A stretch of DNA of 32,000 nt from Mycobacterium sp. Marseille-P9652 (GTDB lineage Bacteria; Actinomycetota; Actinomycetes; Mycobacteriales; Mycobacteriaceae): positions 38,562 to 70,561 of the forward strand of contig NZ_CACRUY010000011.1 of the NCBI RefSeq assembly GCF_902652685.1, read 5' to 3'. Shown here one piece after another: positions 5,454 through 21,745 of the stretch. The number at the start of each line of letters is the position of its first letter. Position 1 is the stretch's first letter. The position numbers were made by a program, and so were the translations under genes. The notes below the pieces were generated by a model, which was given only the letters and a program-made list of their open reading frames with translations, did not search any database and was not told the origin of the DNA.

Positions 5454-5477
5454 AGCGCACAGACGAGGAGGCCGCGA

Positions 5478-6083
5478 GTGGCTCGCTTGACCCGTGCCGA
5501 GCAACGCGAACAAACCCGCCGGCGTCTGATCGAGGCCGCCGGCCGGGTGTTCTGCCGGGTGGGATTCGAAGCGGCGCCGATCGACGTCATCGCCGAAGAG
5601 GCCGGATTCTCCCGCGGCGCTTTCTATTCGAACTTCGAGTCCAAGGACGACCTGTTCCTCGAACTCCTTTGCCGCCACCTCGACGCGGAGCTCGAGACCC
5701 TGGGCCGCGCGCTCGATCGCATCACGTCCGCCGCCGAGCTGGCGCCTGCGATCGAGCGCCGGTACCGGGTCCTGGGGGAGGACGGCAGCTGGTGCCTGCT
5801 GACCACCGAGTTCCAGCTCTACACGATGCGAGGCGGCGCCCGCGCCGGCGAATTCGGAAAGATCTACGAGTCCTACCGGCGACGGCTCGGCGACCTCATC
5901 GCCCACCACTTCGACCGCCTCGGGATCGAATCCGCGCTGACGCCTTACGAGTTCGGCGTCGCGCAGATCGCGCTGTCGCACGGACTGGCGCTGCAGCGGG
6001 CGGCGAACGGGTCGCTGAAGGCGAACCTGCCCGCGCGGGCCCTCGCAACCTTCGTGCGCGGCGCCCTGGCGGGGGATCGGTGA
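5478..6083 (+). CDS. TetR/AcrR family transcriptional regulator
   Basis: HTH region RRRLIEAAGRVFCRVGFEAAPIDVIAEEAGFSRGAFYSNFESKDDLF. GTG at 5478 sits 6 nt after GAGGAGG (5465-5471). An alternative in-frame ATG lies at 5448. The gene is divergent from the hydrolase gene. Confidence 0.85.
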   Translation: MARLTRAEQREQTRRRLIEAAGRVFCRVGFEAAPIDVIAEEAGFSRGAFYSNFESKDDLFLELLCRHLDAELETLGRALDRITSAAELAPAIERRYRVLGEDGSWCLLTTEFQLYTMRGGARAGEFGKIYESYRRRLGDLIAHHFDRLGIESALTPYEFGVAQIALSHGLALQRAANGSLKANLPARALATFVRGALAGDR

Positions 6084-6084
6084 A

Positions 6085-6453
6085 TCAGCCGGCGGCCCAC
6101 TGCGTGGCGCGGTCGAGTTCGTCGAGCCCGAAGACGCGGATCTCGCCCGGCACGATCCACGCCAGCGCGTGCAGGGTATGGGCGATCCACTCCTTGTCGG
6201 TGACGACCGCGATCCGCTTGAACGCCGAGTGATGCGGCCAGACGGTGCCGAAGCCGAGCTTCAGGTCCTCGAGGAGGCCGCCGGGCCCGAAGCCCTCGTA
6301 GTCGCCGGCGATGACCTCCACGATCCGGATCTCCCCGGTTTTGAGCAGATCCGTCAGGGCGGGTTCGAGTTCGCGCAGTTCGTCACCGCGCAACCGGCCG
6401 GACACGCGGATGCCGATCAGGCCCGGGGGCATGTCGGGCAGCAACTCGATCAT
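6085..6453 (-). CDS. STAS / SpoIIAA-like domain protein (DUF3478-type)
   Basis: Track ORF 6085..6822 trimmed to the ATG at 6453, whose codon overlaps the mmsB stop (ATGA). The 122-aa protein MIELLPDMPPGLIGIRVSGRL...FKRIAVVTDKEWI... resembles SpoIIAA-like STAS proteins. Confidence 0.7.
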   Translation of the reverse strand: MIELLPDMPPGLIGIRVSGRLRGDELRELEPALTDLLKTGEIRIVEVIAGDYEGFGPGGLLEDLKLGFGTVWPHHSAFKRIAVVTDKEWIAHTLHALAWIVPGEIRVFGLDELDRATQWAAG

Positions 6454-7337
6454 CAGCTGTCGCGCAGCATCTCGATGACCGCGCTGAAGTCCTTGTCGGC
6501 GTGGTCGGCGGCGAATTTGGCGTAGATGTCGGCGGCGTGGCTGCCCAGCGGCGCGGACGCACCCGTCGAGGCGACGGCATCCATCGCCAGGCCGAGGTCC
6601 TTGTTCATCAGGGCTGTCGCGAAGCCGGGCTTGAAGTCGTTGTTCGCGGGGGAGGTCGGCACCGGGCCGGGCACCGGGCAGTTGGTGTGCACCGCCCAGC
6701 AGTTGCCGGTCGCGCCGGTGATGACGTCGAAGAGGGCCTGGGCCGACAGGCCGAGCTTCTCGGCCAGGACGAACGCCTCGCCGACCGCGATCTGCTGCAC
6801 CGCCAGCACCATGTTGTTGCACACCTTGGCCGCCTGCCCCGCGCCGGCGCCGCCGCAGTGAATCACCTTGCCCGCCATGGGTTCCAGCACGGGGCGCGCG
6901 CGCTCCAGCGCCTCGTCGTCGCCGCCCACCATGAACGCCAGCGTGCCGGCCACCGCGCCCTTCACGCCGCCCGACACCGGTGCGTCGAGCTGCGCGACGC
7001 CGTGGGACTCCGCCAGGGCGTGCACCTCGCGGGCGTCGGTCACCGAGATCGTCGAGCTGTCGATGAACAGGGCACCCCGCTGGGCGGCGGGCAGGATGTC
7101 GGCGTAGCAGCGTTTGACCACGTCGCCGTTCGGCAGCATCGTGATGACGACGTCGGCGTCCTCGACCGCGTCGACGGCGCTGTCGAACACGGCGACGCCG
7201 TGGCCCGTCGCATCGGCGGCGGCCCGCGACACCGGATCGAAGCCGCGCACCATGTAGCCCGCTCGCACGAGGTTGGCCGACATGGGCGCGCCCATGTTGC
7301 CCAGCCCGAGGAAAGCAATGCTTGCAAGGTCAGCCAT
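6453..7337 (-). CDS. mmsB: 3-hydroxyisobutyrate dehydrogenase
   Basis: 294 aa. N-terminal Rossmann motif IAFLGLGNMGAPMSANL and the typical HIBADH core. It is the last enzyme gene of an mmsA-fadE9-mmsB arrangement, as in M. tuberculosis Rv0753c-Rv0751c (from memory). Confidence 0.9.
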   Translation of the reverse strand: MADLASIAFLGLGNMGAPMSANLVRAGYMVRGFDPVSRAAADATGHGVAVFDSAVDAVEDADVVITMLPNGDVVKRCYADILPAAQRGALFIDSSTISVTDAREVHALAESHGVAQLDAPVSGGVKGAVAGTLAFMVGGDDEALERARPVLEPMAGKVIHCGGAGAGQAAKVCNNMVLAVQQIAVGEAFVLAEKLGLSAQALFDVITGATGNCWAVHTNCPVPGPVPTSPANNDFKPGFATALMNKDLGLAMDAVASTGASAPLGSHAADIYAKFAADHADKDFSAVIEMLRDS

Positions 7338-7382
7338 GGTCGCCTTTCTCAGCGGTCGTCTTTCCTGAAGCGGGTGTCGCCC

Positions 7383-8543
7383 CTAAGCGGTGTTACGGAA
7401 CCGCCCGGCTTCGGCCCGACCGATGACCACCCGCATGATCTCGTTGGTCCCTTCCAGGATCCGATGGACCCGCAAGTCGCGGACGATCTTTTCCAGGCCG
7501 TACTCCCGCAGATAACCGTAGCCGCCGTGCAGCTGCAGCGCCTTGTCGGCAACCTCGAAGCACGTGTCGGTGACGTAGCGCTTGGCCATCGCGCACAGCT
7601 GCATCTTGTCCGAGTCGTCATTGTCCAGCGCGTTCGCCGCCCGCCAGAGCATCATCCGCGACGTCTCGAGTCCGGTGGCCATGTCGGCCAGCGCGAACCG
7701 CACCGTCGGCTCGTCGAGCAGGGGCGAGCCGAAGGCCTGCCGGTCGCGCACGTAGGCGCCCGCCTTCTCGAACGCGGCCTGGGCGCCGCCGAGCGAGCAG
7801 GCCGCGATGTTGAGCCGGCCGCCGTTGAGGCCGTTCATCGCGATGCCGAAACCGGCGCCCTCGCCGTCGGCGCCGCCGAGCATCGCGTCGGCGGGAACCC
7901 GCACGCCGTCGAGGATCACCTGGGCGGTCGGCTGCGCATGCCAGCCCATCTTCTCCTCGGGTGCGCCGAAACTCAGTCCCGGCGAACCCTTTTCGACGAC
8001 GAAGGCGGAGATGCCACGCGGGCCCTCACCGCCCGTTCGTGCCATCACCACGTAGACGTCCGAAGCACCCGCGCCGGAGATGAACTGCTTGACGCCGTCG
8101 AGCACGTAGTCGCCACCCTCCCGGACGGCGCGCGTGCCCAGCGCGGCGGCATCGGAGCCGGCGTTCGGCTCGGTGAGGCAGTAGCTGGCGATCACGTCCA
8201 TCGAGGCGAGCCGCGGAACCCAGGCCTTGCGTTGTTCCGGCGTGCCGAACGTGTCGATCATCCACGCGCACATGTTGTGGATCGACAGGAACGCCGCGAC
8301 CGTCGGGCAGGCGGTGGCCAGCTGCTCGAAGATGCGGACCCCGTCGAGGCGCCGCAGGCCGCTGCCGCCGACGTCCTCGCGGCAGTAGATCGCCGCCATG
8401 CCCAGCTCGGCGGACTCGCGCAACACGTCGGTGGGGAAGTGCTTGGTGGCGTCCCATTCCAGGGTGTGCGGCGCGAGGCGTTTCGCGGCGAACGCGGCGG
8501 CCGTCTCGGTGATGACGCGCTCGTCGTCGTTGAGGGTGAACAT
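7383..8543 (-). CDS. fadE9: Acyl-CoA dehydrogenase (isobutyryl-CoA dehydrogenase-like)
   Basis: 386 aa. ACAD motifs are CLTEPNAGSD, the FISGAG region and the C-terminal LQLHGGYGYLREYGLEKIVRDLRVHRILEGTNEIMR. It lies between mmsA and mmsB. Confidence 0.9.
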   Translation of the reverse strand: MFTLNDDERVITETAAAFAAKRLAPHTLEWDATKHFPTDVLRESAELGMAAIYCREDVGGSGLRRLDGVRIFEQLATACPTVAAFLSIHNMCAWMIDTFGTPEQRKAWVPRLASMDVIASYCLTEPNAGSDAAALGTRAVREGGDYVLDGVKQFISGAGASDVYVVMARTGGEGPRGISAFVVEKGSPGLSFGAPEEKMGWHAQPTAQVILDGVRVPADAMLGGADGEGAGFGIAMNGLNGGRLNIAACSLGGAQAAFEKAGAYVRDRQAFGSPLLDEPTVRFALADMATGLETSRMMLWRAANALDNDDSDKMQLCAMAKRYVTDTCFEVADKALQLHGGYGYLREYGLEKIVRDLRVHRILEGTNEIMRVVIGRAEAGRFRNTA

Positions 8544-8549
8544 ACTCGC

Positions 8550-10070
8550 CTAATTCATTGTGGGGATGACGAATTCAGCGCCGTCCTTGATGCCGGACGG
8601 CCACCGCGACGTCACCGTCTTGGTCTTGGTGTAGAACTGGATCGACGTGGGTCCGTGCTGGTTGAGGTCGCCGAAGCCGGAGCGCTTCCAGCCGCCGAAG
8701 GTGTGGTAGGCCACCGGAACCGGGATCGGCACGTTGACGCCGACCATGCCGACCTGCACGCGGGCGACGAAGTCGCGCGCGGTGTCGCCGTCGCGGGTGA
8801 ACACCGCGACCCCGTTGCCGTACTCGTGCTCGGACGGGAGCCGCAGCGCCTCCTCGTAGTCGTGCGCGCGGACGATGCACAGCACGGGACCGAAGATCTC
8901 GTCGGTGTAGATCGACATGTCCGGGGTGACGTGGTCGAACAGGGTGGGGCCGATGAAGAAGCCGCCCTCCAGGTTGGCGTCCCCGAAGGTCAGGTCGTCG
9001 CTGCGGCGTTCGCGTCCGTCGATGACGATCTCGGCCCCCGCGGCCACGCCCTGGTCGATGTAGTCGCGCACACGGTTCAGGGCGGCCTCGGTGACGAGTG
9101 GGCCGTAGTCGGCCTTGGGGTCCAGGCTGTGGCCCACGCGCAGGTTGTTGATCCGGTCGATGAGCCTGGCGCGCAAGCGTTCCGCGGTCTTCTCGCCGAC
9201 GGGCACCGCCACGCTGATCGCCATGCAGCGTTCGCCGGCGCTGCCGTAGCCGGCGCCGATCAGCGCGTCGACAGCCTGGTCCAGGTCGGCGTCGGGCATC
9301 ACGATCATGTGGTTCTTGGCGCCGCCGAAGCACTGCGACCGTTTGCCGTGGGCCGCCGCGCCGGAGTAGATGTACTGCGCGATGTCGGAACTCCCGACGA
9401 ACCCGACCGCCTGGATGTCGGGGTGCTCGAGGATGGCGTCGACGGCCTCCTTGTCGCCGTGCACCACCTGGAACACCCCGGGCGGCAGCCCCGCCTCCAA
9501 GAACAACTCGGCCAGCCGCACCGGCACCGACGGGTCGCGCTCGCTGGGCTTGAGGATGAACGCGTTCCCGCACGCCAGGGCGGGCCCGGCCTTCCAGAGC
9601 GGGATCATCGCCGGGAAGTTGAACGGGGTGATACCCGCGACCACTCCCAGGGGCTGGCGCAGCGAGTAGACGTCGATGCCGGGCCCGGCGCCCTCGGTGT
9701 ACTCGCCCTTGAGCAGGTGGGGGATCCCGACGCAGAACTCGATGACCTCGATGCCGCGCTGGATGTCGCCGCGCGCGTCGGCCAGCGTCTTGCCGTGCTC
9801 GAGCGACAACTGCTCGGCGAGCTCGTCAGCCGCGTCGTTGACCAGGTCGATGAAGCGCATCATGACGCGCGCCCGGCGCTGCGGATTCCATGCGGCCCAA
9901 CCCTTCTGGGCCTCGACGGCCGACGCCACCGCCGCGTCGATGTCGGCCTTGCCGGCCATCGGCACCTGCGCTTGCACCTGGCCGGTGCTGGGGTTGAAGA
10001 CGTCCGCCGTGCGGGTCGACCGGCCCGCGGTGCGCTCGCCGTCGATGAAGTGCGGGATCTGTGTGGTCAT
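8550..10070 (-). CDS. mmsA: Methylmalonate-semialdehyde dehydrogenase (CoA-acylating)
   Basis: Track ORF trimmed to the ATG at 10070 (MTTQIPHFIDGER), which has GAGGA 5 nt upstream. Aldehyde dehydrogenase fold with catalytic Cys in GSAGERCMA. The CoA-acylating subtype follows from context with mmsB and the ACAD. About 506 aa. Confidence 0.9.
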   Translation of the reverse strand: MTTQIPHFIDGERTAGRSTRTADVFNPSTGQVQAQVPMAGKADIDAAVASAVEAQKGWAAWNPQRRARVMMRFIDLVNDAADELAEQLSLEHGKTLADARGDIQRGIEVIEFCVGIPHLLKGEYTEGAGPGIDVYSLRQPLGVVAGITPFNFPAMIPLWKAGPALACGNAFILKPSERDPSVPVRLAELFLEAGLPPGVFQVVHGDKEAVDAILEHPDIQAVGFVGSSDIAQYIYSGAAAHGKRSQCFGGAKNHMIVMPDADLDQAVDALIGAGYGSAGERCMAISVAVPVGEKTAERLRARLIDRINNLRVGHSLDPKADYGPLVTEAALNRVRDYIDQGVAAGAEIVIDGRERRSDDLTFGDANLEGGFFIGPTLFDHVTPDMSIYTDEIFGPVLCIVRAHDYEEALRLPSEHEYGNGVAVFTRDGDTARDFVARVQVGMVGVNVPIPVPVAYHTFGGWKRSGFGDLNQHGPTSIQFYTKTKTVTSRWPSGIKDGAEFVIPTMN

Positions 10071-10106
10071 CGGTGTCCTCGGGTGAGTTTCGGGGGATAC
10101 TTGCAT

Positions 10107-10135
10107 ATCCTAGTAACTGCCCCCGGCAGTGGCAA
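10107..10135 (-). promoter_or_regulatory. Candidate SigA-type promoter of the mmsA-fadE9-mmsB operon
   Basis: The minus strand reads TTGCCA (10135-10130), a 17-nt spacer, then TAGGAT (10112-10107). The -10 element fits TANNNT and lies about 37 nt upstream of the mmsA ATG. The spacer contains inverted repeat CTGCC-CCC-GGCAG (10117-10129). Confidence 0.3.
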
Positions 10136-10146
10136 GGAGGCCGCCG

Positions 10147-10467
10147 TCAGCCGCCGCCGTCGTTCCGCCACACCCCCCGCGCACGCATGTCGTCCTCGGC
10201 CGCCTGGCATTGGGCCGCCAGCTGCCGGTACGCCGCGGCGTTGTCGGGGTTGCGGAACCGCTCGCCCGATCCGGCGGTGGCCAGCCGGATCAACTCCAGG
10301 ACGAACTGCAGCGACCGTCCGCTGCCCAGCGATTCGCCGATCGCGTTGACGACGTCACCGAACTCCAGGTCGTTGTTGCTCGCCGCGGCAAGACCGAGTG
10401 TCACGGCGGCGCGACGGGTGTCGTCGGGCCAGACGGACTCGTCGTGCGGGGGTATCACGCGTGACAT
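10147..10467 (-). CDS. Hypothetical protein (about 106 aa)
   Basis: ATG at 10467 (MSRVIPPHDESVW...). The track gives an upstream TTG at 10494. GC3 in this frame is very high, consistent with coding. I recognised no motif. Confidence 0.5.
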   Translation of the reverse strand: MSRVIPPHDESVWPDDTRRAAVTLGLAAASNNDLEFGDVVNAIGESLGSGRSLQFVLELIRLATAGSGERFRNPDNAAAYRQLAAQCQAAEDDMRARGVWRNDGGG

Positions 10468-10519
10468 TGTCGTCAGCCGCGAAAAGTTCGACAACGGGTG
10501 AGGCTAGCCTGACAGCGGT

Positions 10520-11938
10520 ATGCAGACCATCGAGGCGGACTACCTGGTCGTCGGCGCGGGCGCCATGGGCATGGCGTTCCTCGACACGCTGGTGACCGAG
10601 ACCGGGGCCAGCGTGGTCGTGGTCGACCGCAACCACCAGCCGGGCGGCCACTGGACCATGGCCTACCCGTTCGTGCGGCTGCACCAGCCCTCGGCCTTCT
10701 ACGGCGTGAGCTCGCTGGACCTGGGTAGCGGGACCATCGACGAAACGGGCTGGAACGCGGGCCTTTTCGAGCTCGCCACGTCCGGTGAGGTATGCGCGTA
10801 CTACGACCGGGTCATGCGCCGGCAGCTCCTGCCGACCGGCCGGGTGCGCTACTTCCCGATGAGCGAATACCGCGGCGACGGCCGCTTCACCACGCTGGGC
10901 GGCGGCGACTACACCGTCGACGTGACGCGCCGCATCGTCGACGCCACCTACATGCGGGTCAGCGTCCCCGCGATGCGGCCGCCGCCCTATCCGGTGGCGC
11001 CCGGCGTGGAGTGCGTGGCACCGAACGAGCTGCCGCGGCTGGGCCCGCGCGACCGGTACGTCATCGTCGGCGCCGGCAAGACCGGCATCGACACATGCCT
11101 GTGGCTGCTGGCCCACGGGGTGGCACCCGAACGGCTGACCTGGATCATGCCGCGCGACGCGTGGCTGCTCGACCGGGCGACGATCCAGCCCGGACCCCTC
11201 TTCGCCGACACGATCAAGGCCAATTTCACCGCGCAATTGGAGGCCATCCGGGACGCGGTCTCGCTCGATGACCTGTTCGCGCGGCTCGAGGACGGCGGTG
11301 TCCTGCTGCGCCTGGACGGCACGGTCCGGCCCACCATGTACCGCTGCGCGACCGTCACCCGCGCGGAGCTCGAGCAGCTGCGACGCATCCCCGGCGTCGT
11401 GCGGATGGGTCACGTGCGCCGCGTCGAAATCGACAGGTGCGTGCTCGACGGTGGTGAGGTGGCGTCCGGCGGCTCGGCGCTCTATGTCGACTGCACCGCC
11501 GACGGGGCCGAGAAGGTGCCCGCGACACCGGTTTTCGAGGACCGGCGGATCACGCTGCAGAGCGTGCGTGGTTGCCAGCAGGTGTTCAGCGCCGCGTTGA
11601 TCGCTCACGTCGAGGCGAACTACCCCGACGATTCGGCGCGCAATGAGCTGTGTCGGCCCGTCGAGCACCCCGATACCGACCGGGACTGGGCGCGCAACAC
11701 GCTGGCCGACTACCGCAACCAGCTGCGGTGGTTCGACGACGAGGACCTGACGGCGTGGCTGGCCGGGACGCGCCTGGACCTGTTCGGGCACCTGATCGGG
11801 CACCGGCTGGCGGGGGCGTCGGCGAAGCCGCGGGTGCGCGAACGCCTGATGAGCATGACCAGGACGGCGCTCACCGCCACCGCGGAGAAGCTGGAGCGGC
11901 TGCTCGCCGACGACACGTGTAACCCGACCCGATATTGA
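10520..11938 (+). CDS. FAD/NAD(P)-binding oxidoreductase with two dinucleotide-binding motifs (flavin monooxygenase-like)
   Basis: 472 aa. N-terminal DYLVVGAGAMGMAF...VVVVDR...PGGHW (FAD GxGxxG) and a second Rossmann motif YVIVGAGKTGID near residue 190. Confidence 0.8.
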   Translation: MQTIEADYLVVGAGAMGMAFLDTLVTETGASVVVVDRNHQPGGHWTMAYPFVRLHQPSAFYGVSSLDLGSGTIDETGWNAGLFELATSGEVCAYYDRVMRRQLLPTGRVRYFPMSEYRGDGRFTTLGGGDYTVDVTRRIVDATYMRVSVPAMRPPPYPVAPGVECVAPNELPRLGPRDRYVIVGAGKTGIDTCLWLLAHGVAPERLTWIMPRDAWLLDRATIQPGPLFADTIKANFTAQLEAIRDAVSLDDLFARLEDGGVLLRLDGTVRPTMYRCATVTRAELEQLRRIPGVVRMGHVRRVEIDRCVLDGGEVASGGSALYVDCTADGAEKVPATPVFEDRRITLQSVRGCQQVFSAALIAHVEANYPDDSARNELCRPVEHPDTDRDWARNTLADYRNQLRWFDDEDLTAWLAGTRLDLFGHLIGHRLAGASAKPRVRERLMSMTRTALTATAEKLERLLADDTCNPTRY

Positions 11939-11953
11939 TCGGGTGGAGGACAA

Positions 11954-12514
11954 GTGACCGCACGCAACGAACCCGTCGGCCCGCGACCGCTGCGCGCGGT
12001 GCCCGACCACGGCTCTTCGGGGAGCGACAGCGGCTATCCCGACTGGGAGGCCGTGTACGCCGACAACGCGGGCTGGGTGTACCGCACGCTGTTCGCGCGT
12101 GTCGGCAACCGGGCCGACGCCGAGGACCTCACCGCCGAGGTGTTCCTCGCGGCGTTGCGACCGCTGCGCCTGACGGCGAGCACCGGGGAGGTGCGCGCTT
12201 ATCTGCGCGCGACCGCCCGCACGGTGCTGGCCGCGCACTGGCGCGAGACCCTGGGACGGGAGATAACCTCGATCGACGACATCGAGCAGCCCCCCGATAG
12301 CGAGGAAGCGATCAGCACCGCGCCCCAGCGTGTCGCCCGGGTCCTGGACAACCTGCCCGACCGATACCGCCGGATCCTGGAATTGAGGTTCCTGCAAGGC
12401 AGTTCGATCAAGGAGTCGGCCACGGAACTCGGCATCAGCGTCGCCAACGCCAAGGTGCTCCAGCACCGCGCCCTGAGGCTGGCGGCCCAGGTCAACGACG
12501 GAGGTGCGCCATGA
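11954..12514 (+). CDS. ECF (group 4) sigma-70 family RNA polymerase sigma factor
   Basis: 186 aa. GTG at 11954 is preceded by GGAGGA (11945-11950). Region 2 reads VYRTLFARVGNRADAEDLTAEVFLAAL. Region 4 HTH reads LPDRYRRILELRFLQGSSIKESATELGISVANAKVLQHRALRRL-like. Confidence 0.85.
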   Translation: MTARNEPVGPRPLRAVPDHGSSGSDSGYPDWEAVYADNAGWVYRTLFARVGNRADAEDLTAEVFLAALRPLRLTASTGEVRAYLRATARTVLAAHWRETLGREITSIDDIEQPPDSEEAISTAPQRVARVLDNLPDRYRRILELRFLQGSSIKESATELGISVANAKVLQHRALRLAAQVNDGGAP

Positions 12515-13209
12515 ACGCGCGTGGATTGCGGCGCTACGTCGACGACCTGCTGCGGGGCCGGCGCCCCAAGGCGTTCGAGCCGGACGACTTCGAGGCGGCA
12601 CAGATTCGCACCGCGATCGAGATGCGCGCGGCCCGTCCCGGGCCCGACCCGGACGCCGCGCCGCGGCAGGAGTTCCTCACCGACCTGCACCGTCGCCTCG
12701 CGGAGCAGATGTCCGGTCCCACAACCGAACCGGCGTCCGCGTACAGCAGTACACGCCGCCAGGTCATCGTCGGCACGTCGGCGGCCGCTGCCGCCGCCGT
12801 CGCGGCGGTGTCGATCGACCGGGCCGTGATTGGTGCCACCACCGTACGCTCCGATGTCGCGGCCGGGCAGTTGACGCCCAGCGACGGAAGCTGGCAGCGC
12901 GTCGCCGCCAGCTCGGACGTGCCCGACGGGGGCATGCATGCCTTCGATCTCGGATCGGTCAACGGCTTCGTCCGTCGTGTAGACGGCAAGCTCGAGGCCG
13001 TGTCGGGTGTCTGCACTCACCAGGGATGCCGGCTGTGGTTCGATGCGCCGGACAACAGGTTGCGCTGCCCGTGCCACTCGACATCCTTCTCGCCGACCGG
13101 CCAGGTGGTCACCCATCAGCTGCCGATCGCGCCGAAGCCGTTGCCCACGTTGATGGTTCGCGAGGCCAACGGTGCTGTCGAGGTGTTCGCCCCGGTCAAG
13201 GAGACGTAG
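12511..13209 (+). CDS. Membrane-anchored Rieske [2Fe-2S] domain protein; candidate anti-sigma factor
   Basis: 232 aa. The ATG overlaps the sigma gene stop (ATGA 12511-12514). It has a roughly 75-aa charged N-terminal domain, then an internal twin-arginine-like STRRQVIVGTSAAAAAAVAAVSI anchor, then a C-terminal Rieske domain (CTHQGC ... CPCHST). The anti-sigma role is inferred from position only. Confidence 0.8.
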   Translation: MNARGLRRYVDDLLRGRRPKAFEPDDFEAAQIRTAIEMRAARPGPDPDAAPRQEFLTDLHRRLAEQMSGPTTEPASAYSSTRRQVIVGTSAAAAAAVAAVSIDRAVIGATTVRSDVAAGQLTPSDGSWQRVAASSDVPDGGMHAFDLGSVNGFVRRVDGKLEAVSGVCTHQGCRLWFDAPDNRLRCPCHSTSFSPTGQVVTHQLPIAPKPLPTLMVREANGAVEVFAPVKET

Positions 13210-13216
13210 CCCGGGC

Positions 13217-14653
13217 TCAGGTATCGAAAACTATTGTGCCGTAACCGGTCGGGCTGTACGACAGGTAGATCGGGTGCTGCAGGAACGGGGCGATCCCGGT
13301 GTTGAAGAACCCGCCGAGGGTGCTCGACGAGATGGCCGTCTGTTGGGAACCGACGGTGGTGGTGTACAGCAACTTGCTGCCGTCGCTGGTGTAGACGGCC
13401 ACGCTGGTTCCGGCGGGCAGGTATCCACCGGCGTTCGGCGGCCCGAGGTTGTCGGGCACCGTCCCGCCCAGCCCGCCGGAATCGATGTACGCGCCGGTGG
13501 TCTGCTGCAGTCCGCCGCCGTTGATCCGGATGTCCAGGGTGGTGATCGGCGCCCCGGTCACCGACGCGTATGGGGTCAGCGGGTTGGGGCCGAATTGCAC
13601 CGTTCCCGTGGGCTCGTCAATCAGCAGACCCTGACCGAAGGCGCCCGGCAATGCGGTCACGGGACTGCTCGCGGGACCGTAACCATTGGCCCCCACACCC
13701 AGAATGGCGGGCGCCTGGGATGCGGGATAGGAAAAGACGAAATTCTGGGTTATCGACGTGACGACGGCAATAGTGGTCGGCTGGGTGACAAGGCCGTTTC
13801 CGAAATTCACCGTTGTCGTGTACGTGTTGTAGTTCTCGACGAGCAAATTCCCCAATCCGCCGTAGGTGACGGACCCTTGCCCGGTGGGAGCGCCGAGGCT
13901 CGCGAGATTGACGTCCTGCGGGGGAAGGATCAGACCCCGTGATCCGGTGTCGACAATGACCGGCACGCTCGGTCCGCCGCCCACCGAGACGTTGACGTAC
14001 AGGTCCTGACCCTGCAGTTGCAGGGGCACGGTGGCCAACCCCAGCGGGCCGCTGGCCCCGGGGGACCCGAAAAGGCCGCCGGGGCCGCCGGGACCGCCGA
14101 GCGCGGCCGGGCCACCGGCCCCGCCGGGGCCGCCGTTGCCGATCAACCCCGCGGGCCCGCCGGCGCCTCCGGGCGCCCCGGCGGCGGTGCTGTTTCCGCC
14201 ATGGCCGCCGTTGCCCATCAGGATGCCGCCCGGACCACCGGGCGTGCCGACCCCCCGGGCGTTGGTGACGCCGTCGGCGCCGTCACCGATCAGCGGCCGC
14301 CCCAAAAGCATGTTGGTCGGCGCGTTCACGACCGCGAGGATGTCCTGCTGCAGGATCTGCAGCGGGTCGGCGCTGGCGGCCTCGGTCGCCGCGTACATCC
14401 CGGCGCCCGAATTCAGTGCCTGGACGAATTGCGTGTGCATTGTGGCGGCCTGAACGGCCAGCGCCTGATAAGAGGACGCGTACGCGGAAAAGATCGTCTT
14501 GATGGCTCCCGATACCTCGTCAGCCCCCGCCGTGAGTATTTCGGTTGTCGGTGCGGCCGCCGCGGCGTGCGCCGCGCCAATCCACGACCCGATGTTCGCC
14601 ACTTTTGTCGCCGCGTCGGACACGAATTCCGGCGCAGTGATCACAAAAGACAC
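13217..14653 (-). CDS. PE-PGRS family protein with C-terminal pepsin-like aspartic protease domain (PecA / PE_PGRS35 type)
   Basis: 478 aa, GTG start at 14653 with GGGAAGAGG upstream. The PE domain is [10 protein letters not shown]...AAADEVS-like. A Gly-rich GGxGG linker covers residues about 121-205. Catalytic motifs are VIVDTGSRG (D235) and AYIDSGGLG (D391). Confidence 0.9.
14039..14293 (-). repeat. PGRS-type low-complexity GGC/GCC-rich coding repeat inside the PE gene
   Basis: Encodes [61 protein letters not shown]. The DNA is reiterated GGNCCNCCNGG units. Confidence 0.8.
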
Positions 14654-14761: not shown

Positions 14762-15370
14762 TTAAGCATCGCGCAATGCGGCGATGAATTCCTGCGTTTC
14801 TGCCCACGTGGGGAGCAGGCCAGCGGTGCGCACCTCGTCCAGGCTGGGGGCCGCAGCGTCGCGGTCGGACATGCACGGGGCGGCGCCGTCGATGAGTGGC
14901 CAGTCGATCGCAAGGGCCGGGTCCGTCGGGCAGATGGTGTGCTCACGTTGCGGGTTGTACTCCGCTGAGCACAGGTACATCATCGTCGAATTGTCTTGCA
15001 GCACATAGAAAGCATGCCCGAGCCCCTCGGACATGTAGATCGTCCGGCGGTCCTTGTCGTCGAGCAGGACCGAGTCCCACTGGCCGAAAGTCGGCGAGCC
15101 GACGCGGAGGTCAACCGCAACGTCGAAGACGGCACCGGACACGCAGGTGATGTATTTCGCCTGACCCGGTGGCACCTGGGCGAAATGCAGTCCGCGCAGC
15201 ACGCCGGCCGACGACACCGAGCAGTTGACCTGGACGACGTCCAACCGGTGACCGGCGAACCCGGTGAATCCCCGGTTGGTGAACCACTCGAAGAGCAGGC
15301 CACGCGAATCGCCGTGGACTGTCGGGGTGATTTCCCAGGCGCCGGGGATTTTGAGCTCGCGCACTTCCAT
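14762..15370 (-). CDS. rmlC: dTDP-4-dehydrorhamnose 3,5-epimerase
   Basis: Track ORF trimmed to the ATG at 15370 (MEVRELKIPGAWEITPTVHGDSRGLLFEWF...), giving 202 aa. Cupin epimerase motifs are VLRGLHF and YMSEGLGHAFY. It starts 1 nt after the rmlB stop. Confidence 0.9.
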   Translation of the reverse strand: MEVRELKIPGAWEITPTVHGDSRGLLFEWFTNRGFTGFAGHRLDVVQVNCSVSSAGVLRGLHFAQVPPGQAKYITCVSGAVFDVAVDLRVGSPTFGQWDSVLLDDKDRRTIYMSEGLGHAFYVLQDNSTMMYLCSAEYNPQREHTICPTDPALAIDWPLIDGAAPCMSDRDAAAPSLDEVRTAGLLPTWAETQEFIAALRDA

Positions 15371-15371
15371 G

Positions 15372-16394
<1,023 letters not shown>

Positions 16395-17255
16395 TCATTC
16401 GGGCCGGGTTAACCCCAGTGGTCCGGCCAGTTCACTCAGCGCGCTCAGCAGGGTGCCTTCGTCCCAGCCGCCCACCACCTGGATCGCGACGTGGTCGGCG
16501 CCGGCCTCGTGATGCTGCGCGAGGCGCCGCGCGACCGCCTCCGGGGTGCCGTGGGCGACGACCGCATCGACCAGCCGGTCGCTGCCGGGCTTGCGCACGT
16601 CGTCCTGCGTGAACCCCAGCCGCAGCCAGTTGTTCACGTAGTTGGCGAGGTCGAGGTTGAGTTGCAGTTGGTCGCGCCCCAACGCGCGGGCCCGCTCGGC
16701 GTCGGTCGTCACGATCACCTTGTGCTCCGGCGCAAGGAACACCGCGTCGCCGACCAATTCCCGCGCCTTCGCGGTGTGTTCCGGGGTGGTCAGGTAGGGG
16801 TGGGCGCCCGCGGAGCGTTCGGCGGCCAGCCTGAGCATCTTCGGGCCGAGCGCCGCCAGCACCCTGCGGCTCGTCGGAATCCCGCGGACGTCCAGCTCGT
16901 CGAGGTACCCGACCACGGCGTCGTACGGCTTCACGTAGGCCTGGTCGACCTCGCGGTGGCCGGCGCCGACGCCCAGCAGGAACCGGCCCAGGTGGGCGCT
17001 TTCGATGCGCGCGAACGAGTCGGCGACGGCCGGGGCGGGCGCGGACCAGATGTTGAGGATCCCCGTCGCCAACTGCAGCGAGGTCGTGCGTTCCAGCGCC
17101 GGCTCCACCCACGCCAGGTCGGCGTCCGGTGACGCGCCGATCCAGACCGCGCCGTACCCGAGCGACTCGATCTTTGCCGCCAGCTCCGGCGTGACCGACC
17201 GGGTGGGCAGCCACACGCCGAACCGGCCCAGGTCGGGCTTGAGCGACACGGTCAC
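16395..17255 (-). CDS. LLM-class (luciferase-like) F420-dependent oxidoreductase, Rv3463-like, copy 2
   Basis: Track ORF 16395..17987 trimmed to the GTG at 17255, which overlaps the upstream stop (GTGA). The 286-aa protein VTVSLKPDLGRFGVW...GAHPYLTTPEHTAKAR... is a paralog of the upstream gene. Confidence 0.85.
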   Translation of the reverse strand: MTVSLKPDLGRFGVWLPTRSVTPELAAKIESLGYGAVWIGASPDADLAWVEPALERTTSLQLATGILNIWSAPAPAVADSFARIESAHLGRFLLGVGAGHREVDQAYVKPYDAVVGYLDELDVRGIPTSRRVLAALGPKMLRLAAERSAGAHPYLTTPEHTAKARELVGDAVFLAPEHKVIVTTDAERARALGRDQLQLNLDLANYVNNWLRLGFTQDDVRKPGSDRLVDAVVAHGTPEAVARRLAQHHEAGADHVAIQVVGGWDEGTLLSALSELAGPLGLTRPE

Positions 17256-18094
17256 CGAAGCCCCAGCGGGCCCGCCAGCTCGGCCAGGGCCGAGACCAGG
17301 TTCTCGTCCTTGGTGAGGACCTGCACGGGGACGTGGTCGGCGCCGGCGTCGAGGTGTTCGTTCAGCCGCGCGGCGATCTGGTCGGGGGTGCCGTAGGCGA
17401 CGACGGAGTCGACCAGCCGGTCGCTGCCCGGACGGGCGACCTCCTCGTCGGAGAAGCCGAGCCGCTTCCAGTTGTTGCGGTAGTTGGCCAGGTTGAAATA
17501 GATGTCGAGCGCCCTGCGGCCGACCGCCCGCGCCTTCTCGGGGTCGGTGGTCAGGACGACCTTGTGCTCGGGGGCCAGGAATGCCGACGGACCGATCAGC
17601 GCGCGGGCCCGCGCGGTGTGCTCGGGCGTGGTCAGATAGGGGTGCGCGCCCGCGGCACGCTGCGCCGAGAGTTTGAGCACCCGCGGCCCGAGGGCGGCCA
17701 CGACGCGCCGGTGGGCGGGGACCCCGTATTCGTCCAGCTTGTCGAGGTACTCCACCAAGGCGTCGTAGGGCTTGCGGTACTCGCTGTGGGCCTCGGGATG
17801 GCCGACGCCGATGCCGAGCAGGAAACGGCCCGGGTACGCCCCGTCGATGCGGTGGAACGACTCGGCGACCGGGCCCGCGGCCGCCGTCCAGATGTTGACG
17901 ATGCCGGTGGCCACCTGCAGCGTGGTCGTCGCCTCGAGGAGTGGCTCGACCCAGGCGAGCTCGGCGGGCGGCGAACCGCCGACCCACACGGCCCCGTAGC
18001 CCAGGGACTCGATCTCTTTGGCTTGCTGGGGCGTGACGCCGCGTCCGAACGATCCGAACCGGCCGAGGTTGGGCTTGCTGGCTGCATCCGTCAT
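17252..18094 (-). CDS. LLM-class (luciferase-like) F420-dependent oxidoreductase, Rv3463-like, copy 1
   Basis: Track ORF trimmed to the ATG at 18094 (MTDAASKPNLGRFGSFG...), giving 280 aa. It shares long colinear blocks with copy 2 (LGYGAVW.G, AELAWVEP, GRFLLG.G.GH, AGAHPYLTTPEHTA.AR, FLAPEHKV, LANY.NNW.RLGF, PGSDRLVD.VVA.GTP). Confidence 0.85.
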   Translation of the reverse strand: MTDAASKPNLGRFGSFGRGVTPQQAKEIESLGYGAVWVGGSPPAELAWVEPLLEATTTLQVATGIVNIWTAAAGPVAESFHRIDGAYPGRFLLGIGVGHPEAHSEYRKPYDALVEYLDKLDEYGVPAHRRVVAALGPRVLKLSAQRAAGAHPYLTTPEHTARARALIGPSAFLAPEHKVVLTTDPEKARAVGRRALDIYFNLANYRNNWKRLGFSDEEVARPGSDRLVDSVVAYGTPDQIAARLNEHLDAGADHVPVQVLTKDENLVSALAELAGPLGLR

Positions 18095-18123
18095 GGTTGT
18101 TCCCAACCCGGCGGGTCGGGGCG

Positions 18124-19608
18124 CTATTCCTCGGCGGGCGTCAGCTCCAGGGGCAGCAGAACGATGAAGCGGGTGTCGCCGGGCGCCGATTCCACGCGCA
18201 GGTCGCCGCGGTGTTTCTTGACGACGATGTTCCACGCCAGGTCCAGCCCGAGGCCCGTGCCTTCCCCGACCGGCTTGGTGGTGAAGAACGGCTCGAAGAT
18301 CCGGCTTCGGACGTCGTCGGGGATTCCGGGTCCGGTATCGCAGATCTCGACGCGCGCCATCTTTTCGCCGTCGCGGCGGGTCCGGATCGTCAGCGTGCCG
18401 CCCTTTGAATCGGGACCGGCGCCCATCGCGGCGATCGCGTTGTCGATGATGTTGGTCCACACCTGGTTGAGATCGCCGGGGTAACAAGGGATCTGCGGCA
18501 GTGAGGTGTCGAACTCCTTCACCACCGCGATGGCGGCGTCTTTTCGTGCGTGCGGGCCGATCCGGTCGGCGAACATCGTGAGCGTGCTGCGCAACAGGTC
18601 GTGGACGTCGGCCACCTGGAACGGGGCGCGGTCCATCTGCGAATACTGCTTGGCGTCGGCCACCAGCGCCGAGATCCGCTTGCTCGCCTCCAGGACCTGG
18701 TTCAGCAGCAGCTCACCTTCGACGGTGTAGGTCAGCCAGCGGATGGCCTTCTCCAGTGAGGTCGACGCGCCCATCTCCTCGGTCGCCGCCGCGATGCGTT
18801 CGAGCCAGTCGGTGTCGATGCCGCCCTCGACGAACGTCGGCGCGATGTCCCACCCGCCCTCGATGCCGTGGTCTTCGAGCCATTCCCCGACGGCGTCCTC
18901 CCGGTCGGCCGTCTCGATCGCGCTCAGGTTCGCCGACGCCGACTTGATGACCTGGGCCGCGACCTCCTCCTGCAGGCGCACCAGCGCCCGCAGCGCCTCC
19001 GGGGTGACGGTCCCGTCCGCGAGCATGGCGAGCTTCTGGCGCATGCCGGCGACCCGCTCCCGCAGCTCGGCCGCGGCCCGGACCGTGGCGGCGGCAGGGT
19101 TGTTCAGCTGGTGGGTCAGCCCGGCGGACAGCTGGCCCAGGGCGAGCAGTTTCTCCCGGTTGCCGATGATCCGCCGCGTGCGCTCCTGACCGACCGCCAT
19201 GCCGTCGAGCAGGTGAACGGCCATCGGGAACTGGTCCTTCATGAAGCGGGCGAAGGCCGGCGCGTCGAGCACGAAGAACCGCGACGGCTTGGTGACGTAC
19301 ACCGTCGCGTCGTAGCTCTGGTGTTCCGACTGCCCGGTGAAGGCCCGCCAGGCGCCGCAGTAGACGCCGCGCTGCGAGGTCCGGTTGGTCTCGATCTCCT
19401 GGCCGCCGGAGAGCTTGGACATTGCCAGCTCGCCCTCGATGAGGACGTAGAAGCACGTCGCGGGTTCGCCCTCGACGCAGATCGGGCCGGGCTCGTAGTG
19501 CTGGATGTGCCCGCTGGCGCACAACTCCCCGAGCTGCTCGTCGGTGAGGGCCTCGAAGAGGAACAGGCTGCGCAGCTCGCCGGGATCGCACGGCTGTGCG
19601 GTGGTCAT
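18124..19608 (-). CDS. Sensor histidine kinase with N-terminal cyclic-nucleotide-binding-like domain (soluble)
   Basis: Track ORF 18124..20910 trimmed to the ATG at 19608, which overlaps the upstream stop (ATGA 19605-19608). 494 aa. The CNB-like beta-roll is LFLFEALTDEQL...FYVLIEGEL. Kinase motifs are H-box LSAGLTHQLNNP (H166), N-box QVWTNIIDNAI, G1 ICDTGPGIP, F-box IFEPFFTTK and G2 GTGLGLDL. No TM segment is seen. Confidence 0.9.
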   Translation of the reverse strand: MTTAQPCDPGELRSLFLFEALTDEQLGELCASGHIQHYEPGPICVEGEPATCFYVLIEGELAMSKLSGGQEIETNRTSQRGVYCGAWRAFTGQSEHQSYDATVYVTKPSRFFVLDAPAFARFMKDQFPMAVHLLDGMAVGQERTRRIIGNREKLLALGQLSAGLTHQLNNPAAATVRAAAELRERVAGMRQKLAMLADGTVTPEALRALVRLQEEVAAQVIKSASANLSAIETADREDAVGEWLEDHGIEGGWDIAPTFVEGGIDTDWLERIAAATEEMGASTSLEKAIRWLTYTVEGELLLNQVLEASKRISALVADAKQYSQMDRAPFQVADVHDLLRSTLTMFADRIGPHARKDAAIAVVKEFDTSLPQIPCYPGDLNQVWTNIIDNAIAAMGAGPDSKGGTLTIRTRRDGEKMARVEICDTGPGIPDDVRSRIFEPFFTTKPVGEGTGLGLDLAWNIVVKKHRGDLRVESAPGDTRFIVLLPLELTPAEE

Positions 19609-21272
19609 GATTCGGCGAGGTAGCGGTGCACGAGCATGACGGCCATGGAGCCCTCGCCGACCGCGGCCGCCACCCGCTTGGCCGACGACGAGCGCACGTC
19701 GCCGGTGGCGAACACCCCGGGCACGCTGGTCTCCAGGTGGTGGGGCGGCCGGTCCAGGGTCCAGCCGCAGACGTTGCGCAGATCGGGGCCGGTGAGGATG
19801 AACCCGCGCTCGTCGCGCGCGACCACCCCGTCGAGCCAGTCGGTGCGCGGCGCGGCGCCGATGAAGATGAACATGCGGTCGCACGTGACGTCCTCGGTGT
19901 CGCCGGTGCGGTTGTCGACCAGGGTGAGCTTCTCGAGGTGCTCGGTGCCGGTGGCGCACTGGACCTCGGTGCAGGTGCGGACGGTGATCTTCGGGTTCCG
20001 CTCGATCTGCTGGATCAGGTAGTAGGACATCGACGCCTCCAGCGAGGCGGCGCGGACGACGATCGTCACCGACTTCGCCTCGCGGGACAGGTGCATGGCG
20101 GCCTGGCCGGCCGAGTTGGCGCCGCCGACCACGAACACGTCTTCGTCCCTGCACTCCGAGGAGATGGACGTCGCAGCGCCGTAGTAGACGCCCTTGCCGG
20201 TCAGTTCCTCGCAGCCGGTCGCCGCCAGCTGGCGGTAGGCGACACCGGTGGCCAGGATGACGGCGTGCGCGTCGATGGAGCCGCCGTCGGCGAACCGCAC
20301 GGTGCGCGCGGACCCGTTGACCTCGAGCGCGGTGGCGGTGCGCGCGGTGATGAGCTCGGCCCCGAACTTCTCGGCCTGCCGGCGCGCGCGGTCGGCGAGC
20401 TGGCCGCCCGACAGCCCGTCTGGGAAGCCCAGGTAGTTCTCGATCCGCGAGCTCTGGCCGGCCTGGCCCCCGGTCGCGGTGCGCTCGATGAGCACCGTGC
20501 GCAGGCCCTCCGACGCGCCGTAGACGGCTGCGGCGAGGCCGGCGGGGCCGCCGCCGATGACGACCAGGTCGTAGAAGTCCTGCGACGGCGTGGTGGTCAG
20601 GCCCAGCGTGTCGGCGAGTTCGGCGTCGCTGGGTTCGACCAGCGTGGTGCCGCGTTCGGTGACGACGACCGGCAGGCGCAGGCCGTCCTCGCCGGCGGCC
20701 TGCAGCAGCCGCTGGCCCGCGGGATCGTCGGACATGAACCAGGTGTAGTAGAGCCCGTTGCGGGCCAGGAAGTCGCGGACCTGCCAGGACCGCGCCGACC
20801 AGCGGTGCCCGATCACCTTGGTGTGCGGGATGGGCCGTTCGGGCGTGCGCCGCCAGGCTTCCAGCAGCGCGTCGACCACCGGGTAGAGCTTTTCCTCGGG
20901 CGGGTCCCACGGCTTGAGCAGGTAGTGGTCGAGGTCGACGACGTTGATCGCGTCGATGGCGGCGTGGGTGTCGGCGTAGGCGGTCAGCAGGATGCGCCGC
21001 GCCGCCGGGTAGAGGTCCATCGCCTGCTCGAGGAACTCGATTCCCGTCATCTGCGGCATCCGGTAGTCGGCGATCAGCGTCGCGACCGCCTCGCCGCGCA
21101 GCTTGAGCTCCTTGAGGGTGTCCAGCGCCTCGGGCCCGGATTCGGCCCGCACGATCCGGTGGTCCTCGCCGTAGTGGCGGCGCAGGTCGCGGGCCACGGC
21201 CCGGGACACCGAGGGATCGTCGTCGACGGTCAGCATGACGGGCTTGCGGGGCTGTCCAGCGGGATTCGTCAT
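19605..21272 (-). CDS. Fused response-regulator receiver / glutaredoxin-like linker / thioredoxin-reductase-like FAD-dependent pyridine nucleotide oxidoreductase
   Basis: 555 aa.
- REC domain: acidic pocket LTVDDDPS, phospho-acceptor IADYRMP (D69), LLTAY (T97), YLLKPW (K120).
- TrxR-like part: FAD motif DLVVIGGGPAGLAAAVYGA, TGGQAGQSSRIENYLGFP, second Rossmann motif VFVVGGANSAGQAA, and GVFATGDVR.
- Where TrxB has CATC, the sequence reads GVYYGAATSISSEC (nt 20151-20192). Confidence 0.9.
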   Translation of the reverse strand: MTNPAGQPRKPVMLTVDDDPSVSRAVARDLRRHYGEDHRIVRAESGPEALDTLKELKLRGEAVATLIADYRMPQMTGIEFLEQAMDLYPAARRILLTAYADTHAAIDAINVVDLDHYLLKPWDPPEEKLYPVVDALLEAWRRTPERPIPHTKVIGHRWSARSWQVRDFLARNGLYYTWFMSDDPAGQRLLQAAGEDGLRLPVVVTERGTTLVEPSDAELADTLGLTTTPSQDFYDLVVIGGGPAGLAAAVYGASEGLRTVLIERTATGGQAGQSSRIENYLGFPDGLSGGQLADRARRQAEKFGAELITARTATALEVNGSARTVRFADGGSIDAHAVILATGVAYRQLAATGCEELTGKGVYYGAATSISSECRDEDVFVVGGANSAGQAAMHLSREAKSVTIVVRAASLEASMSYYLIQQIERNPKITVRTCTEVQCATGTEHLEKLTLVDNRTGDTEDVTCDRMFIFIGAAPRTDWLDGVVARDERGFILTGPDLRNVCGWTLDRPPHHLETSVPGVFATGDVRSSSAKRVAAAVGEGSMAVMLVHRYLAES

Positions 21273-21523
21273 CGGAACTAAGTATGCGCCCGCGGGGGCC
21301 CCCGCGAGAGGTGAGCGGATCGCCCTGAGCGAACGGTCGGCCGTGATTTTGGCCGCGGCGAAAGACCAGGTATCGTGGGGTAACGGTGCGGCGAACGCGC
21401 CGGCTTTTGTGTGCCCAGTCCCCAGGAATTTCCGGTTACCGGCTCACGTTTGAAGTCGGGGTATGTCGCGCCGATCCGGGCGAGACGACAAACGAGACGC
21501 AAGACGAGGATTTTCAAGGACTT

Positions 21524-21745
21524 ATGGCCAAGAAAGACGGTGCCATAGAGGTCGAGGGCCGCGTGGTGGAGCCCCTGCCCAATGCGATGTTCCGCATTGA
21601 GCTGGAGAACGGCCACAAGGTGCTCGCCCACATCAGCGGCAAGATGCGGCAGCACTACATCCGCATCCTGCCCGAGGACCGGGTGGTGGTGGAGCTGTCT
21701 CCCTACGACCTGTCCCGGGGCCGCATCGTGTACCGGTACAAGTAA
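21524..21745 (+). CDS. infA: Translation initiation factor IF-1
   Basis: 73 aa, [78 protein letters not shown] lies 3 nt upstream of the ATG. The track ORF starts too early (21386). Confidence 0.97.

Follow-up and report, generated by a model that had tools for sequence, protein, structure and literature searches.

A putative two-component kinase and flavoprotein-regulator pair in the probably inherited infA-rmlBC locus of Mycobacterium sp. Marseille-P9652

Two-component systems pair a histidine kinase (HK) with a response regulator (RR), and one predicted pair of this kind lies between infA and the rhamnose synthesis genes rmlB and rmlC in Mycobacterium sp. Marseille-P9652. It is found in a 32,000-nucleotide (nt) stretch of contig NZ_CACRUY010000011.1 (positions 38,562 to 70,561; assembly GCF_902652685.1), here called the window, at the head of an array of six minus-strand genes. 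The array was defined from a listing of open reading frames, their translations, and the junction sequences, and gene families were assigned with Pfam and NCBIfam profiles. The RR gene (19605-21272; 555 amino acids [aa]) matches Response_reg and Pyr_redox_2 in Pfam, and the HK gene (18124-19608; 494 aa) matches cNMP_binding and HATPase_c. They are followed by two luciferase-like (LLM) oxidoreductase genes, LLM1 (17252-18094; TIGR03620 in NCBIfam, 381.1 bits against a cutoff of 219.8) and LLM2 (16395-17255, with a GTG start; TIGR03620, 361.8 bits against the cutoff of 219.8). The array ends with rmlB, encoding dTDP-glucose 4,6-dehydratase (15372-16367; TIGR01181, 475 bits against a cutoff of 365), and rmlC, encoding dTDP-4-dehydrorhamnose 3,5-epimerase (14762-15370; TIGR01221, 165.8 bits against a cutoff of 155.75).

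The six genes are closely spaced. The RR and HK genes overlap by 4 nt (ATGA), a 29-nt gap separates the HK stop from LLM1, LLM2 overlaps the LLM1 stop by 4 nt (GTGA), 27 nt lie between LLM2 and rmlB, and a single nucleotide separates the rmlB stop from rmlC. No terminator-like site was seen in any of the five junctions. The gene identities, shared strand, and junctions given in an earlier, sequence-only description of this DNA (the original prediction) are thus confirmed. Marking the boundary of the array is infA, a divergent plus-strand neighbor (21524-21745) that encodes the 73-aa initiation factor IF-1, begins 251 nt from the RR start, and leads a divergent ribosomal cluster continuing with rpmJ, rpsM, rpsK, rpsD, and rpoA. 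The exact IF-1 protein of the window is common to many mycobacterial genomes.

LLM2 is a tandem paralogue of LLM1, with about 65% identity. LLM1 is 82% identical to the single LLM of an M. tuberculosis-type locus (L086), compared with 64% for LLM2, which identifies LLM1 as the predicted orthologue of the sole LLM (Rv3463-like) kept in M. tuberculosis-type genomes. Both proteins fall in an LLM class predicted to be F420 dependent, the family name being itself a prediction.

To place this arrangement among its relatives, we used an RmlB-anchored scan with one genome per species, which yielded 31 informative Mycobacteriaceae loci scored by tblastn, and a second sample, drawn independently with the exact IF-1 protein as the anchor. 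The order RR-HK-LLM(s)-rmlB-rmlC, in the same orientation, occurred in 25 of the 31 species loci, including those of Mycolicibacterium setense, M. aurum, M. austroafricanum, M. pyrenivorans, and many slow growers. Among the six loci from which the pair was absent, three (L002, L005 from M. asiaticum, and L012) keep both LLMs, that of M. shimoidei (L008) keeps LLM1 only, and in the remaining two (L028 and L034) infA directly adjoins rmlB. The same gene order is found at MSMEG_1510-1519 of M. smegmatis (RR, 552 aa; HK, 490 aa; LLMs, 298 and 283 aa; RmlB, 331 aa; RmlC, 201 aa; IF-1, 73 aa), and the fast-grower loci align with the window proteins along their full length. They differ in having genes for NfeD and flotillin (MSMEG_1518/1517 in M. 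smegmatis) between infA and RR; these are absent from the window, where RR is directly divergent from infA. In one contig of a metagenome-assembled genome (L007/L081) the RR frame is interrupted and rpoA, too, is called as two genes, most likely as a result of long-read assembly indels rather than pseudogene formation.

Two further gene orders lack the pair. In two chromosomes of 4.41 Mb (L084 and L086), which we take to be M. tuberculosis from features of strain H37Rv, gene order among them, infA is divergent from a single LLM-rmlB-rmlC block, and neither the pair nor LLM2 is present; the full order is bpoA-like, ilvB2-like, mhpE-like, REP13E12, rmlC, rmlB, one LLM, and infA. Measured against this type, the window arrangement has two breakpoints, one just upstream of the LLM1 ribosome-binding site and the other roughly 100 nt ahead of the RR start. 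Loci from genomes of about 5 Mb, which we infer to be M. abscessus partly from their gene order, read secY-adk-map, rmlC-rmlB-LLM-flotillin-NfeD, infA. Because secY-adk-map adjoins the rml block and infA in these loci, and presumably does not do so in M. tuberculosis, the map-infA region appears to be an old rearrangement hotspot.

These comparisons bear on the central claims of the original prediction, which took the pair and LLM2 to be extra genes wedged in at infA, saw the six genes as compatible with one transcript, and suggested that a redox signal is tied in this way to the F420 oxidoreductases and to dTDP-rhamnose synthesis; in its full form this is a model of recent insertion and a single operon. 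Its expectation that M. tuberculosis would show infA directly divergent from LLM-rmlB-rmlC, without the pair or the second LLM, was correct (L084 and L086), and the absence of these genes from M. tuberculosis-type genomes is what an insertion would lead one to expect, as is the evolutionary mobility of the cassette formed by RR and HK, copies of which are carried by plasmids and megaplasmids of several phyla. The synteny comparison nevertheless went against an insertion, since the pair occupies this site in most of the species sampled, M. smegmatis included, and appears to have been inherited there. In a neighbor-joining tree, the RRs of mycobacteria group as a single clade apart from those of Streptomyces and Tsukamurella, and pairwise RR-plus-HK distances track those of four neighboring genes (r = 0.74; Mantel test, 0 of 2,000 permutations). 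The whole 8.7-kb region is collinear with its counterparts in three related species (L001, L003, and L006) at 83-86% DNA identity. The GC content at third codon positions is 0.94 in the region, in line with its flanks, no compositional anomaly was detected across the region relative to the flanks, and a tRNA search found none. On the grounds of composition, the lack of a tRNA, collinearity, RR monophyly, and distances congruent with those of the neighbors, we rejected a recent horizontal insertion.

Because the pair is widespread, monophyletic, and codiverging with its neighbors, the M. tuberculosis arrangement is best viewed as a derived state of loss. The genes missing from M. tuberculosis are also noncontiguous and did not form one block, because LLM1, which is kept there, stands between the pair and LLM2. 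In the most economical history, the cassette would have been gained between flotillin and LLM after Mycobacteroides diverged. Slow growers would then have lost NfeD-flotillin, bringing the cassette next to infA, and the pair would later have disappeared from some lineages: from M. asiaticum, and, together with LLM2, from M. shimoidei and M. tuberculosis-type genomes.

The proposal of a single six-gene transcript fared no better than that of an insertion. In M. smegmatis, primary transcription start sites (TSSs) lie 34 nt before the annotated start of MSMEG_1516 (the RR), 105 nt before that of MSMEG_1514, and 155 nt before that of MSMEG_1513, so that RR, LLM1, and LLM2 each have one of their own, and MSMEG_1512 (rmlB) has a leaderless primary TSS only (PMC6448022, Table S3). 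The only high-confidence operons reported at the locus are 1512-1510 and 1518-1517 (PMC6448022). In sequences from 32 of 32 Mycobacteriaceae, the window included, a TANNNT motif ends 6-8 nt before the rmlB ATG; in the window it is a minus-strand TAGGGT box (16375-16380), 7 nt upstream of the ATG. The 32 sequences include M. tuberculosis-type, M. abscessus-type, and LLM-less loci, some with neither the pair nor an LLM, and the surrounding spacer is not conserved. The persistence of the motif despite an unconserved spacer argues for a conserved leaderless promoter and thus for rmlB-rmlC as an autonomous unit.

A comparable element precedes the RR gene. All 13 species compared, slow and fast growers alike, have the sequence GCATACT, containing the -10-like hexamer CATACT (21281-21286, minus strand), 8 nt ahead of the RR ATG that in the window is at 21272. 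An NCBI protein (P0001) that is otherwise identical to the RR starts at Met13 (21236); we favor the start at 21272 over this shorter model because GCATACT is conserved 8 nt upstream of it. We infer that the M. smegmatis RR TSS maps to about the ATG of the long form, and the RR-HK message very probably arises from its own leaderless, or nearly leaderless, promoter. A scan for the sigma-70 consensus gave one match against 0.5 expected, a consensus that is uninformative for mycobacterial promoters.

The tight junctions and the absence of terminator-like sites are compatible with one operon, and it is the separate M. smegmatis TSSs, the rmlB -10 box, and the variable spacing of the array that speak against it. 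The distance from LLM2 to rmlB reaches about 4.6 kb in one locus (L025) and about 0.8 kb in another (L031); the spacing in L025 in particular indicates that the LLM-rmlB junction is not fixed. Nor does the RR have a DNA-binding domain, either among its Pfam domains or in its AF2 model, through which it could act on the adjoining genes, and the proposed regulatory link from the pair to the rhamnose or F420 enzymes finds no support. Synteny and the M. smegmatis TSSs together largely refute the combined model of a recent insertion, one operon, and a redox signal serving F420 oxidoreductases and dTDP-rhamnose synthesis, which we regard as very improbable.

What the pair itself might do is best approached through the domains of the RR. 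At its N terminus is a REC domain (aa 12-125, nt 20898-21239, minus strand; Response_reg, 52 bits against 30.2 in Pfam) whose residues D17, D18, D69, T97, and K120 are invariant in a 42-sequence alignment. The middle of the protein (aa ~150-223, nt 20604-20825, minus strand) matched no Pfam family, and its fold is visible only in the AF2 model, in which aa 151-222 adopt the beta-alpha-beta-alpha-beta-beta-alpha fold of a glutaredoxin (Grx)-like domain. This domain is free of cysteines and has HRWS at the CxxC position. The C-terminal part (aa 233-555, nt 19608-20576, minus strand; Pyr_redox_2, 125 bits) is a FAD/NAD(P)H domain like that of thioredoxin reductase (TrxR), with the motifs GGGPAGLAAA and GGANSAGQAA invariant across the RR alignments. 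It, too, is without CxxC: alignments to PDB sequences, to 24 mycobacterial homologues, and to 6 distant homologues ranging from Streptomyces to Nostoc all place GAAT/AATS at the TrxR CxxC position. No alternative invariant cysteine pair exists in the 42-sequence alignment, in which C374 alone is nearly invariant and is absent in Deinococcus. The RRs of fast growers carry an insertion of 9-10 aa (WNDPDNP...) in the NADPH domain.

Databases name this protein “thioredoxin reductase (NADPH)” (JGI) or “fused response regulator/thioredoxin-disulfide reductase” (NCBI), names that favor reading it as a genuine thioredoxin-disulfide reductase, switched by phosphorylation, that places thiol-redox homeostasis under signal control. 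That TrxRs come out best among PDB entries, in sequence as in fold, and that the FAD/NAD(P)H motifs are present fits such a reading, as does the superposition of the TrxR part on L. lactis TrxR in the FR conformation (5mh4; Foldseek TMt, 0.91). With TrxB (Rv3913 of M. tuberculosis and E. coli TrxB; 30-34% identity) the RR shares a two-domain FAD/NADPH fold and GxGxxG motifs, but it lacks the CATC/CAAC redox center and has gained the REC and Grx-like domains. The RR scores only 223.8 bits with the thioredoxin-disulfide reductase profile TIGR01292 (cutoff, 343.45), the CxxC is replaced in every family member examined, no conserved cysteine pair takes its place, and the Trx-fold domain has RWS where its own CxxC would be. 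Because both redox-active CxxC centers are missing, we rejected the identification as a thioredoxin-disulfide reductase, and the thiol-homeostasis reading that depends on it is scarcely credible.

A closer architectural relative is AhpF, the top global Foldseek match of the RR model (4xvg, 4o5q, and 1hyu), in which a Trx-fold domain likewise stands N-terminal to a TrxR-like FAD/NAD(P)H module. Profile scores place the RR outside this family also (TIGR03140, 170 against a cutoff of 503; TIGR03143 matches partially as well). AhpF combines two Trx folds, with a CxxC, and an NADH domain that bears a second one, whereas the RR has one Grx-like fold and no CxxC, bears an added N-terminal REC domain, and has no ahpC neighbor. 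The RR is thus predicted to be an AhpF-like flavoprotein stripped of both dithiol centers, and not, despite its names, a thioredoxin reductase. A “TrxB” output class is listed in a census of cyanobacterial response regulators (PMC9953108). That REC-TrxB class has the same plan of REC plus pyridine nucleotide-disulfide oxidoreductase and is defined by domain composition only; what is new for the family is the lack of CxxC, the cysteine-less Grx-like middle domain, and the constant pairing with one kinase bearing a cyclic nucleotide-binding (CNB) domain.

The kinase opens with a CNB/CAP-effector-like domain (aa ~17-130, minus strand; cNMP_binding PF00027, 36.2 bits against 27.5) and closes with a HATPase_c domain (aa 379-488, minus strand; 79 bits against 26.4 in Pfam) in which the N, G1, F, and G2 boxes are conserved as NIIDNA, DTGPGI, FEPFFTTK, and GTGLGL. 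Between the two (aa ~150-370, nt 18499-19161, minus strand) is a segment running from the H box at His166 (LTHQLNNP) through an insert. The H box, LSAGLTHQLNNPA, is invariant across phyla and yet reaches only 19.9 bits with Pfam HisKA, against a cutoff of 26.9; this subthreshold match is the only one that Pfam returned for the segment. The insert, about 130 aa long, sits between the H-box helix and the catalytic domain, interrupting the usual DHp-CA spacing, and is conserved from mycobacteria to cyanobacteria, with the motifs DRED..WL, AP.LV.AG, and RIS.LV.A.K.YS..D.

In a canonical CNB domain the phosphate-binding cassette, Gly-Glu ... Arg-Ser/Thr-Ala, contacts the cyclic phosphate. The corresponding HK sequence is noncanonical (CGAW...SYDATV), with Glu and Arg replaced throughout the family, which makes cAMP and cGMP improbable ligands. 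In the partner kinases of other phyla, matches to PF00027 range from weak to normal. No predicted membrane segment is evident in the HK sequence, and the protein is predicted to be soluble and cytoplasmic. An N-terminal cysteine is conserved in Actinobacteria and corresponds to Cys5 of MSMEG_1515, which is described as a two-component sensor histidine kinase and in which this residue is reported to be oxidized under NaOCl (PMC5430705). Kinase number varies in some loci: tandem paralogous CNB-kinases stand beside one RR in two Mycolicibacterium-type loci (L018, 6025-8916; L031, 4582-7464), and two CNB-kinase copies lie upstream of the RR in Deinococcus (L093, 1029-2426) and Caballeronia (L094, 3478-4908).

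The cassette extends well beyond mycobacteria. Searches of plasmids with tblastn returned full-length RR homologues, at 50-71% identity, from Streptomyces, Tsukamurella, Nocardia, Nonomuraea, Deinococcus, Caballeronia, Paraburkholderia, Gloeothece, and Nostoc. In all nine non-mycobacterial contexts, six annotated and three metagenomic or genomic (Streptomyces, Tsukamurella, Deinococcus, Caballeronia, cyanobacteria, and metagenome contigs), the RR is followed by a homologous HK. The two genes usually overlap by 4 nt, although in Nostoc they are separated by a transposase gene and one other. The partner kinases are 33-57% identical over their full length in most of these contexts, and that of Nostoc aligns over residues 151-487 only. 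A gene for a UBP-type zinc finger forms a third cassette member, overlapping the kinase stop by 4 nt, in Streptomyces (L091, 8122-8475) and Tsukamurella (L092, 8140-8490); neither the window nor any mycobacterial locus examined has this gene. The N-terminal half, REC plus the Grx-like domain, has 477 cluster representatives at E values of ≤1e-30. No paper was found under the NCBI fused-regulator name, and a broader literature search gave incidental mentions only and no functional study. The cassette is a widespread, autonomous, uncharacterized two-gene signaling module.

Related proteins of Deinococcus, Streptomyces, Paraburkholderia, and Cupriavidus (plasmid matches H12-H25) align only from about aa 145, that is, over the Grx-like and TrxR-like domains, and several bear the name [quoted passage not shown] In these fusions of a CNB domain to a TrxR-like protein, the module shared with the RR extends to the C terminus and is 48-51% identical. 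The fusions carry the CNB domain on the flavoprotein itself, whereas here it resides on a separate kinase, from which the signal would pass by a predicted His-Asp phosphotransfer. The same flavoprotein module is therefore linked to a CNB sensor in two ways, by direct fusion in some cases and by way of a kinase and a REC domain in others.

These non-mycobacterial cassettes also help in judging whether the pair works with the LLMs as a redox module, in which the TrxR-like flavoprotein would supply them with reduced flavin or recycle deazaflavin and rmlBC would be a bystander. At least one LLM lies directly downstream of the pair in all 25 pair-bearing mycobacterial loci, HK and LLM1 are only 29 nt apart with no terminator between them, and many luciferase-like enzymes require a separate flavin reductase. 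Neither an LLM nor an rmlBC pair, however, adjoins the cassette in any of the nine outside contexts, where the neighbors vary from case to case; L002, L005, L008, L012, and M. tuberculosis- and M. abscessus-type genomes have LLM genes but no pair; and LLM1 and LLM2 of M. smegmatis have primary TSSs of their own. TIGR03620, moreover, is a predicted F420-dependent family, and we know of no precedent for an F420 reductase with a TrxR fold. A partnership of this kind is thus unlikely. More generally, the coupling of the pair to rmlBC and the LLMs that was originally envisaged finds no support: rmlBC and the LLMs are kept in genomes that lack the pair, the cassette is found elsewhere in their absence, and nothing ties its output to rmlBC.

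A mechanism for the module can be sketched from the residues that are conserved. HK would sense a small cytoplasmic ligand, or a redox cue, through its CNB-like domain, autophosphorylate on His166, and pass the phosphate to Asp69 of the RR, the two genes being adjacent or overlapping in 25 mycobacterial and 9 other contexts. Phosphorylation of the REC domain may then alter the activity, the oligomeric state, or the assembly of the AhpF-like flavoprotein module, giving an output that would be enzymatic rather than transcriptional, with electrons moving from NAD(P)H through FAD to a nondisulfide substrate. Candidate outputs are electron transfer to a nonthiol acceptor and a purely regulatory, redox-sensing flavin. 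We suggest only tentatively, and at somewhat less than even odds, that this is a cross-phylum two-component system whose output is a phospho-switched flavoenzyme without the ancestral redox cysteines, a chemistry undescribed for the fold.

For the locus as a whole, the best explanation, to which we assign a probability of roughly 70%, is an inherited, standard mycobacterial layout made up of at least two adjacent but independent units, and not an insertion peculiar to this genome. Several considerations weigh against it. The 29-nt gap between HK and LLM1 shows no recognizable promoter as well as no terminator, so that in this organism, whose transcription units are predicted from those of M. 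smegmatis, transcription of the pair may run on into the two LLM genes or even as far as rmlBC. The constant adjacency of pair and LLM within the Mycobacteriaceae could reflect function and not history, and sampling through RmlB misses copies of the pair located elsewhere in mycobacterial genomes. The oldest event could be either a gain after the Mycobacteroides split or a loss in Mycobacteroides. The AF2 model of the RR is of moderate confidence (pLDDT, 79), falling to low confidence at residues 265-287, and the role of the flavoprotein and the signal perceived by the kinase are deduced from sequence.

The inherited-layout reading makes this array the normal mycobacterial arrangement, one already annotated in M. 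smegmatis with mapped start sites, and makes the loss of the pair in M. tuberculosis, M. shimoidei, and M. asiaticum a further example of the reductive loss of sensing capacity. It also offers a modest lead, in that unstudied REC-TrxB regulators, routinely annotated as thioredoxin reductases, are always accompanied by one cytoplasmic kinase. A tractable orthologue (MSMEG_1515/1516) already exists, as does a phage protein that binds the RR. MSMEG_1516, a protein of about 60 kDa described as a thioredoxin disulfide reductase with TrxB2 (Rv3913) as its best M. tuberculosis homologue (36% identity), was the dominant coprecipitate of Wildcat gp145, a 55-aa toxic phage protein that causes branched filaments (PMC7474061). 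The literature on MSMEG_1515/1516 holds no published function, the oxidation of HK Cys5 and the coprecipitation of the RR with gp145 being the only reports found. Because of the link to gp145 and its filamentation phenotype (PMC7474061), the module, if it is indeed a phospho-switched flavoenzyme, may feed into cell growth or division or may be a phage target. Since the orthologue is bound by a phage protein, a known antiphage defense system was also considered; it was rejected, as PADLOC models gave no match for RR, HK, LLM1, or LLM2.

Other features of the window lie outside the pair. An Rfam search of the whole window matched no RNA element or riboswitch. Within rmlB, the tract from 15500 to 16200 is 93-96% identical in DNA sequence to Mycobacterium sp. 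1245805.9 (L001), compared with about 85% in the rest of the 8.7-kb collinear region, and the RmlB protein is 98% identical to its L001 counterpart, against 77-89% for the neighboring proteins; this tract resembles a short recombination or gene conversion tract. The L025 locus, from a metagenome-assembled genome, carries extra divergent rmlB-like (33%) and rmlC-like (47%) genes at 5467-10000, between LLM2 and the canonical rmlB-rmlC. Downstream of rmlC is a PE-PGRS gene (13217-14653), whose product has a C-terminal aspartyl-peptidase-like domain and whose presence marks the source as a slow-growing Mycobacterium. It belongs to a left flank (6453-14653) that also holds homologues of mmsB-fadE9-mmsA and an extracytoplasmic function (ECF) sigma factor gene (11939-12514), the M. 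tuberculosis counterparts of which presumably lie near secY-adk-map (Rv073x-075x), far from infA.

On the other side of the array, the plus strand carries a terminator-like, GC-rich hairpin (21384-21402) followed by GCTTTTGTGT, about 120 nt upstream of the infA start. The spacer that includes it (21369-21523) is still alignable with the M. tuberculosis-type locus. Five primary TSSs precede infA in M. smegmatis, at distances of 61-208 nt. The hairpin may be a leader element, or else what remains of the terminator of a gene (map) that lay upstream in an ancestor.

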